A stretch of 5,359 bases of DNA from NCBI RefSeq assembly GCF_003334765.1, contig NZ_QOWT01000065.1; one strand, given 5' to 3'. Shown in pieces: positions 4,989-5,106 of the stretch. The notes beneath the pieces were generated by a model that worked only from the letters and a program-made list of their open reading frames with translations, made no database searches and was not told where the DNA came from. Made by a program: the position numbers and the translations under genes. The DNA comes from Escherichia coli (GTDB taxonomy: Bacteria; Pseudomonadota; Gammaproteobacteria; Enterobacterales; Enterobacteriaceae). How positions within the stretch are numbered: position 1 is the stretch's first letter; each line of letters opens with the position of its first letter.

Positions 4989-5106
4989 ATATTTTCTTAG
5001 GGTAGTCATATGCATTTCTAATATAGAGTATATAGTGCGCCAATTTATTGTGAGATAAAAAAATATCATACATTGATAGTAAGAGTTAATAGAGCACCGT
5101 ATTGAC
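4989..5106 (-). promoter_or_regulatory. Putative promoter/regulatory region of the fimbrial operon (AT-rich leader between the IS3-like fragment and the chaperone gene)
   Basis: About 118 bp, strongly AT-rich, immediately upstream of the first operon gene. Contains several -10-like hexamers on the minus strand (TATACT, TATGAT) and A/T tracts of the kind bound by AraC-family fimbrial activators (AggR/Rns type). No -35/-10 pair with ideal spacing could be fixed by eye. Confidence 0.3.

Follow-up and report, generated by a model that had tools for sequence, protein, structure and literature searches.

The region at positions 4989-5106 is very probably the single AggR-dependent promoter of an agg3DCB-agg5A operon, at which AggR, supplied in trans, binds the site ATTTTTTTATC located 21 bp upstream of the -10 hexamer. 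It is the already published AggR-activated agg3D promoter, here driving the AAF/V variant of the operon. The feature has been described before, also in the AAF/V context, since identical DNA was tested by Yasir et al. 2019 (PMC6392122) and the same promoter is printed for the AAF/V strain E36 (PMC7781526). For the identical sequence, it has been shown in the literature that activity depends on AggR and that both the TATC of the site and the A of the -10 hexamer are needed. The same regulation presumably holds in the strain from which this DNA comes, as judged from the sequence.

The window, which is the whole stretch of 5,359 nucleotides that was analyzed, contains the AAF/V aggregative-adherence fimbrial operon agg3D-agg3C-agg3B-agg5A on the minus strand, with IS remnants on both sides (Table 1). 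Over its whole length, it is 99.8-99.9% identical to pAA virulence plasmids annotated with agg3D/C/B-agg5A. NCBIfam profiles confirmed the folds of the chaperone, the usher and the SafD-like minor pilin, and the genes stand in the order of the AAF chaperone-usher clusters (chaperone-usher-minor-major), with agg3DCB followed by agg5A. From position 932 to 5359, the window is 99.7% identical to the AAF/III plasmid of strain 55989, which differs downstream by carrying the agg3A major subunit cassette in place of agg5A. The identity is lost at 932, where the major subunit gene encodes the signal peptide, and is regained at 103-244, indicating that the agg5A cassette (245-931) is a clean replacement in an otherwise AAF/III cluster. 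By these alignments, AAF/V is here an AAF/III cluster in which the major-subunit cassette has been replaced and the AAF/III regulatory region has been retained.

Table 1. Positions of the promoter elements, genes and IS remnant in the window
Feature	Position	Strand	Basis
AggR site ATTTTTTTATC, perfect WWWWWWWTATC match	5064..5054	-	motif scan; published mutation; top matrix score
21-bp spacer between AggR site and -10	5033..5053	-	
Weak -35-like CTCACA, abutted or overlapped by the AggR site	5054..5049	-	
-10 hexamer TATACT	5032..5027	-	published 307C mutation; marked in PMC7781526 Fig. S5F
Predicted transcription start (~5018-5022) and short 5' UTR	4989..5022	-	usual -10 to +1 distance
Opposite-strand consensus match AAAAAAATATC	5057..5067	+	motif scan; 7.47 bits, rank 11
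IS3-like left-end remnant (terminal repeat and first orfA codons)	5109..5204	-	91.8% identical to window 10-107
agg3D chaperone gene, first in operon	4236..4988	-	ATG at 4988
agg3C usher gene	1632..4181	-	
agg3B minor subunit gene	1178..1618	-	
agg5A major subunit gene (AAF/V), last in operon	488..1003	-	

Promoter elements and their published counterpart

The promoter region lies directly upstream of the agg3D ATG (4988, minus strand), and on the gene strand its layout reads ...CAATGTATGAT ATTTTTTTATC TCACAATAAATTGGCGCACTA TATACT CTATATTAGAAATGCATATGACTACCCTAAGAAAATAT ATG. AggR-dependent promoters have been defined by a WWWWWWWTATC site on the gene strand and by a -10 hexamer with an A at position 2, located 21-23 bp downstream of the site (Yasir et al. 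2019); 22 bp is the optimal distance (PMC6392122). Both elements are present here, as ATTTTTTTATC conforms to the consensus and TATACT follows after 21 bp. Elsewhere in the region, TATC occurs in motifs (for example CTATCAATG) that fit neither WWWWWWWTATC nor AnnnnnnTATC. A CRP-like site around TCACA (5053..5049) was also considered and discarded, as inspection by eye found no correctly spaced TGTGA half-site. RNA folding of the predicted agg3D 5' UTR gave no structure beyond that of shuffled sequences (z = -0.22).

The agg3D start is assigned to ATG 4988. Two in-frame ATGs are located upstream of it on the minus strand, at window positions 5009 and 5015, and the 4988 start is supported by the plasmid copy C700-09, in which a deletion of 1 nt in the 5' UTR shifts both of these ATGs out of frame. 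A GTG-initiated ORF that spans the promoter (4236-5147) is mechanical and was rejected, the published and the PGAP start both being ATG 4988.

The DNA upstream of agg3D in strain 55989 has the same sequence as the promoter region (100% identity), without a break between the IS3 remnant and the start codon of agg3D. The 55989 DNA has been cloned as a 540-bp fragment, agg3D100 (Yasir et al. 2019, PMC6392122), of which the primers map to window positions 5264 and 4725, giving exactly 540 bp. In addition, the wild-type versions of the primers used for the 331C/333C and 307C mutations match window 5075..5040 and 5041..5013, respectively. The mutagenic agg3D100-331C/333C primer converts TATC into CACC (window 5057/5055), and the 307C primer alters the A of TATACT (window 5031). 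Without AggR, the agg3D100 fragment is inactive, and the activity seen when AggR is supplied is abolished by either the 331C/333C or the 307C mutation (PMC6392122, Fig. 5B). This evidence for agg3D is genetic and was obtained with a two-plasmid reporter in E. coli K-12 (PMC6392122); in the papers examined, no assay of direct AggR binding to agg3D DNA and no mapping of the agg3D transcription start were found. An identical sequence, with the same AggR site, -10 hexamer and ATG, is given by Abdelwahab et al. 2020 (PMC7781526, Fig. S5F) for two strains, 55989 and the AAF/V strain E36; the E36 promoter was assigned there by alignment. Compared with the agg3D promoters of both 55989 (AAF/III; PMC6392122) and E36 (AAF/V; PMC7781526), the promoter in the window has the same site, the same 21-bp spacer, the same -10 and the same ATG, and no difference was found.

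These results bear on an earlier note on this DNA, which had been made from the sequence and placed a candidate AggR target upstream of the first AAF gene. The 100% identity to the AggR-dependent 55989 promoter upholds this assignment of a target for AggR, a member of the Rns/CfaD subgroup of the AraC/XylS family. The description of the region as AT-rich with TATC-containing motifs was also correct, with a G+C content of 28.8% compared to 40.7% for the whole window, and the 23-mer it cited, AAAAAAATATCATACATTGATAG, is found at plus-strand positions 5057-5079. The motif given as an example, AAAAAAATATC on the plus strand, needs one correction, as the functional site is the overlapping minus-strand ATTTTTTTATC at 5064..5054. 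The word 'leader' was used loosely for what is a promoter followed by a predicted 5' UTR of approximately 30 nt.

The upper limit of the region, 5106, nearly coincides with a real boundary, the edge of the IS3-like remnant. In unrelated plasmids, the IS3 homology stops at window 5106-5109, and the remnant bounds the promoter approximately 45 bp upstream of the AggR site. The junction between the IS remnant and the promoter is identical in 55989, C700-09 and BEC1, and this junction of the right IS3 remnant is common to AAF/III and AAF/V plasmids. The IS3-type left ends at 10-107 and 5109-5204 have the same orientation (direct) and flank the entire fimbrial operon; the left one extends into a full IS3 past the window, and the right one is a remnant of 96 bp. 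Such paired left ends could mediate deletion or movement of the fimbrial operon. Further upstream, at window 5205-5359 on the plus strand, the C-terminal end of another IS3-family transposase (ending in ...LEIFYNRQRRHSRLGNISPAAFREKYHQMAA and a stop) and its terminal repeat are present, and many Escherichia and Shigella plasmids carry copies of the segment 5221-5359 with 100% identity. At the other end of the window, a minus-strand ORF of 101 aa (102-407) has no Pfam or NCBIfam match; the PGAP annotation has an IS256-family transposase fragment (N-terminal) at 243-407. In 55989, the DNA adjoining the counterpart of window 102-407 carries astA.

Matrix scores, shuffled sequences and distribution

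A scan with an AggR binding-site matrix, which the earlier note had proposed as a check, was performed with a position-weight matrix derived from eight further functional AggR sites listed in PMC6392122 (aafD, afaB, aggD, agg4D, aap, aatP, aggR and aaiA), with agg3D left out. With this leave-one-out matrix, the site at 5064..5054 ranks first among approximately 10,700 positions on both strands of the window, scoring 13.09 of a possible 13.9 bits. The degenerate consensus arises readily by chance in AT-rich DNA, and a sequence match alone would therefore be weak. When the 118-nt region was shuffled 20,000 times with its dinucleotide composition preserved, 11.8% of the shuffles had WWWWWWWTATC on the sense strand, and 18.1% had it on at least one strand. 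A site combined with TAnnnT at a distance of 21-23 bp was found in 1.4% of the shuffles, and a strict composite with 21-22 bp and TATAnT was found in 0.17%.

The distribution of the promoter among sequenced plasmids is consistent with activation in trans. The ORFs of the window encode the chaperone, the usher, the minor and major pilins and IS fragments, and no regulator-like ORF is present, as the earlier note had stated; an Rfam scan of the window also returned no RNA family. The window contains no aggR gene. A 151-bp promoter segment was found in 16 PLSDB plasmids, all 16 of which carry aggR (98.4-100% identity); aggR and the promoter are approximately 12 kb apart in NZ_CP093070, a sequence with 99.8% identity to the window. 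Of 5426 complete E. coli genomes, 17 have the promoter, always plasmid-borne and always upstream of agg3D. The most divergent promoter copy, that of C700-09 (96.7%), has an intact AggR site and -10, and its five changes are confined to the 5' UTR and the spacer, which becomes 22 bp.

Other promoter-like sequences were observed in the window, where the total count of such sites is not above that in shuffles. WWWWWWWTATC itself occurs 7 times compared to 1.4 +/- 1.25 in shuffles, an excess that is probably an effect of patchy AT-richness. A second AggR-like composite (ATATATTTATC, 22 bp, TATGTT; 12.6 bits) is located at 783-821 on the plus strand, antisense within agg5A. Upstream of agg5A, the minus-strand site AGTATATTATC (1176..1166, 8.4 bits) has by eye no TAnnnT at 21-23 bp, and therefore no internal AggR promoter is proposed there. 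Of all sequences in the window, TTGAAA-18-TATAAT (11/12) at the agg3D/agg3C junction (4258-4229, minus strand) fits the sigma-70 consensus best; it could serve the usher as an internal promoter or be a chance match.

Mechanism of activation and alternative readings

In the proposed mechanism, AggR would be produced in trans from an aggR gene elsewhere on the pAA virulence plasmid and would bind ATTTTTTTATC on the minus strand. Since this site is located only 21 bp upstream of TATACT, it overlaps the -35 position, and the bound AggR would recruit RNA polymerase through contact with sigma-70 domain 4, in a class II-type manner. Such a contact has been proposed for AggR by the authors of the reporter study, as for many AraC/XylS activators (PMC6392122). 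Transcription would start near position 5020, giving a 5' UTR of approximately 30 nt, and the transcript would run through agg3D, agg3C, agg3B and agg5A as a probable co-transcribed unit.

It is also conceivable, but unlikely, that AggR acts here mainly as an anti-silencer, with H-NS repressing the AT-rich promoter and AggR displacing H-NS rather than recruiting RNA polymerase directly. The region is 71% A+T, and work cited in PMC6392122 reports that, at some promoters, H-NS is counteracted by Rns/CfaD and VirF, which are related to AggR. The direct-activation model has, however, been tested at the paralogous aafD and afaB promoters, including the use of hns mutants and primer extension (PMC6392122). 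There, activation by AggR was still strong in the hns null background, and H-NS repression was marginal, with no derepression. Moreover, the melR promoter became AggR-dependent by transplanting a single AggR site 21-23 bp from its -10 (PMC6392122), a finding with which anti-silencing fits poorly. Almost no credence is given to a reading in which the motif is a product of chance in AT-rich DNA and the operon is constitutive or is transcribed by read-through from the adjacent IS remnants. Consensus matches do arise in 12-18% of the shuffles, and IS3-family remnants are located directly upstream, at 5109-5359. The published reporter assays already contradict it, as agg3D100 spans the IS remnant up to 5264 and is nevertheless inactive in the absence of AggR and after mutation of the -10 or the TATC (PMC6392122).

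The plus-strand sequence AAAAAAATATC raises the question of orientation. It is itself a perfect WWWWWWWTATC match that shares its A/T tract with the minus-strand site, and the two matches together form GATA-N6-TATC, GATAAAAAAATATC, at 5054-5067; a GATA-W7 element is likewise found upstream of the AggR site of agg4D. It is nevertheless extremely unlikely that AAAAAAATATC is the working site or that both overlapping inverted sites act together, as a dimer or in divergent transcription. AAAAAAATATC is oriented away from agg3D and is not followed by a TAnnnT after 21-23 bp, and with the matrix of functional sites it scores 7.47 bits compared to 13.09 bits for the minus-strand site. In addition, the 331C/333C mutation destroys the minus-strand TATC and alters just one A/T-tract base of the plus-strand match. 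The plus-strand site alone thus does not support activity, because this inactivating mutation leaves it nearly intact. Finally, aggD and aafD lack an inverted partner site. The broader suggestion that the overlapping inverted matches might give AggR a choice of two binding orientations or a dimer site, or might drive a divergent transcript into the IS3 remnant, and, separately, that the IS truncation approximately 45 bp upstream would make this promoter naturally minimal, is regarded as very unlikely. The inverted overlap GATA-N6-TATC is probably incidental, and the minus-strand ATTTTTTTATC is taken as the site through which AggR would act.

Comparison with other fimbrial promoters

The agg4D/hdaD (AAF/IV) and aggD (AAF/I) promoters likewise stand immediately in front of the chaperone gene, and each contains one AggR site, followed after 21-22 bp by a good -10. 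In agg4D, the arrangement is ATTTATTTATC-22 bp-TATAAT, and a GGCGC block in the spacer is common to agg4D and agg3D. In aggD, it is ATTTTTTTAGC-21 bp-TATAAT, with TAGC in place of TATC. Outside these elements, the sequences of both promoters have diverged from agg3D. The aggD leader also has a long TCAAGT repeat tract that has no counterpart in agg3D; in NZ_CP023533.1, this tandem repeat lies between the -10 and the ATG (310-393). The TCAAGT repeats have been reported to be without effect on aggD promoter activity (Yasir et al., PMC6392122). The aafD and afaB promoters of EAEC 042 (AAF/II) share the same architecture and the same regulator, AggR. The AAF/II genes, however, are organized in two transcription units with two AggR promoters, whereas one promoter is present here for the whole operon.

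Outside the AAF family, the promoters controlled by Rns/CfaD in ETEC (CS1 coo and CFA/I) offer a looser parallel. They depend on homologous AraC/XylS regulators and have similar AT-rich, TATC-containing sites, and, according to the account in PMC6392122, these regulators are partly interchangeable with AggR. They belong, however, to another pathotype and to other fimbrial operons, and H-NS anti-silencing is prominent there. The closest non-AAF homologue of the chaperone (59% identity; NZ_CP070070.1, 1-1150) is preceded by a gene for a PapB/FocB-family regulator, indicating that related chaperone-usher clusters use a different regulatory scheme. This homologue was set aside as a promoter comparison, as it stands beside this regulator gene and has no AggR-type promoter.

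The finding of the agg3D promoter in this window leaves the current understanding unchanged, as the feature is ordinary and already known. The exact positions of the AggR site and the -10 permit the correct annotation of AAF/III and AAF/V plasmids. AAF/V, which corresponds to AAF/III with a swapped major-subunit cassette, has kept the AAF/III regulatory region unchanged, and in typical enteroaggregative E. coli the AggR-driven expression of AAF is the central virulence switch.
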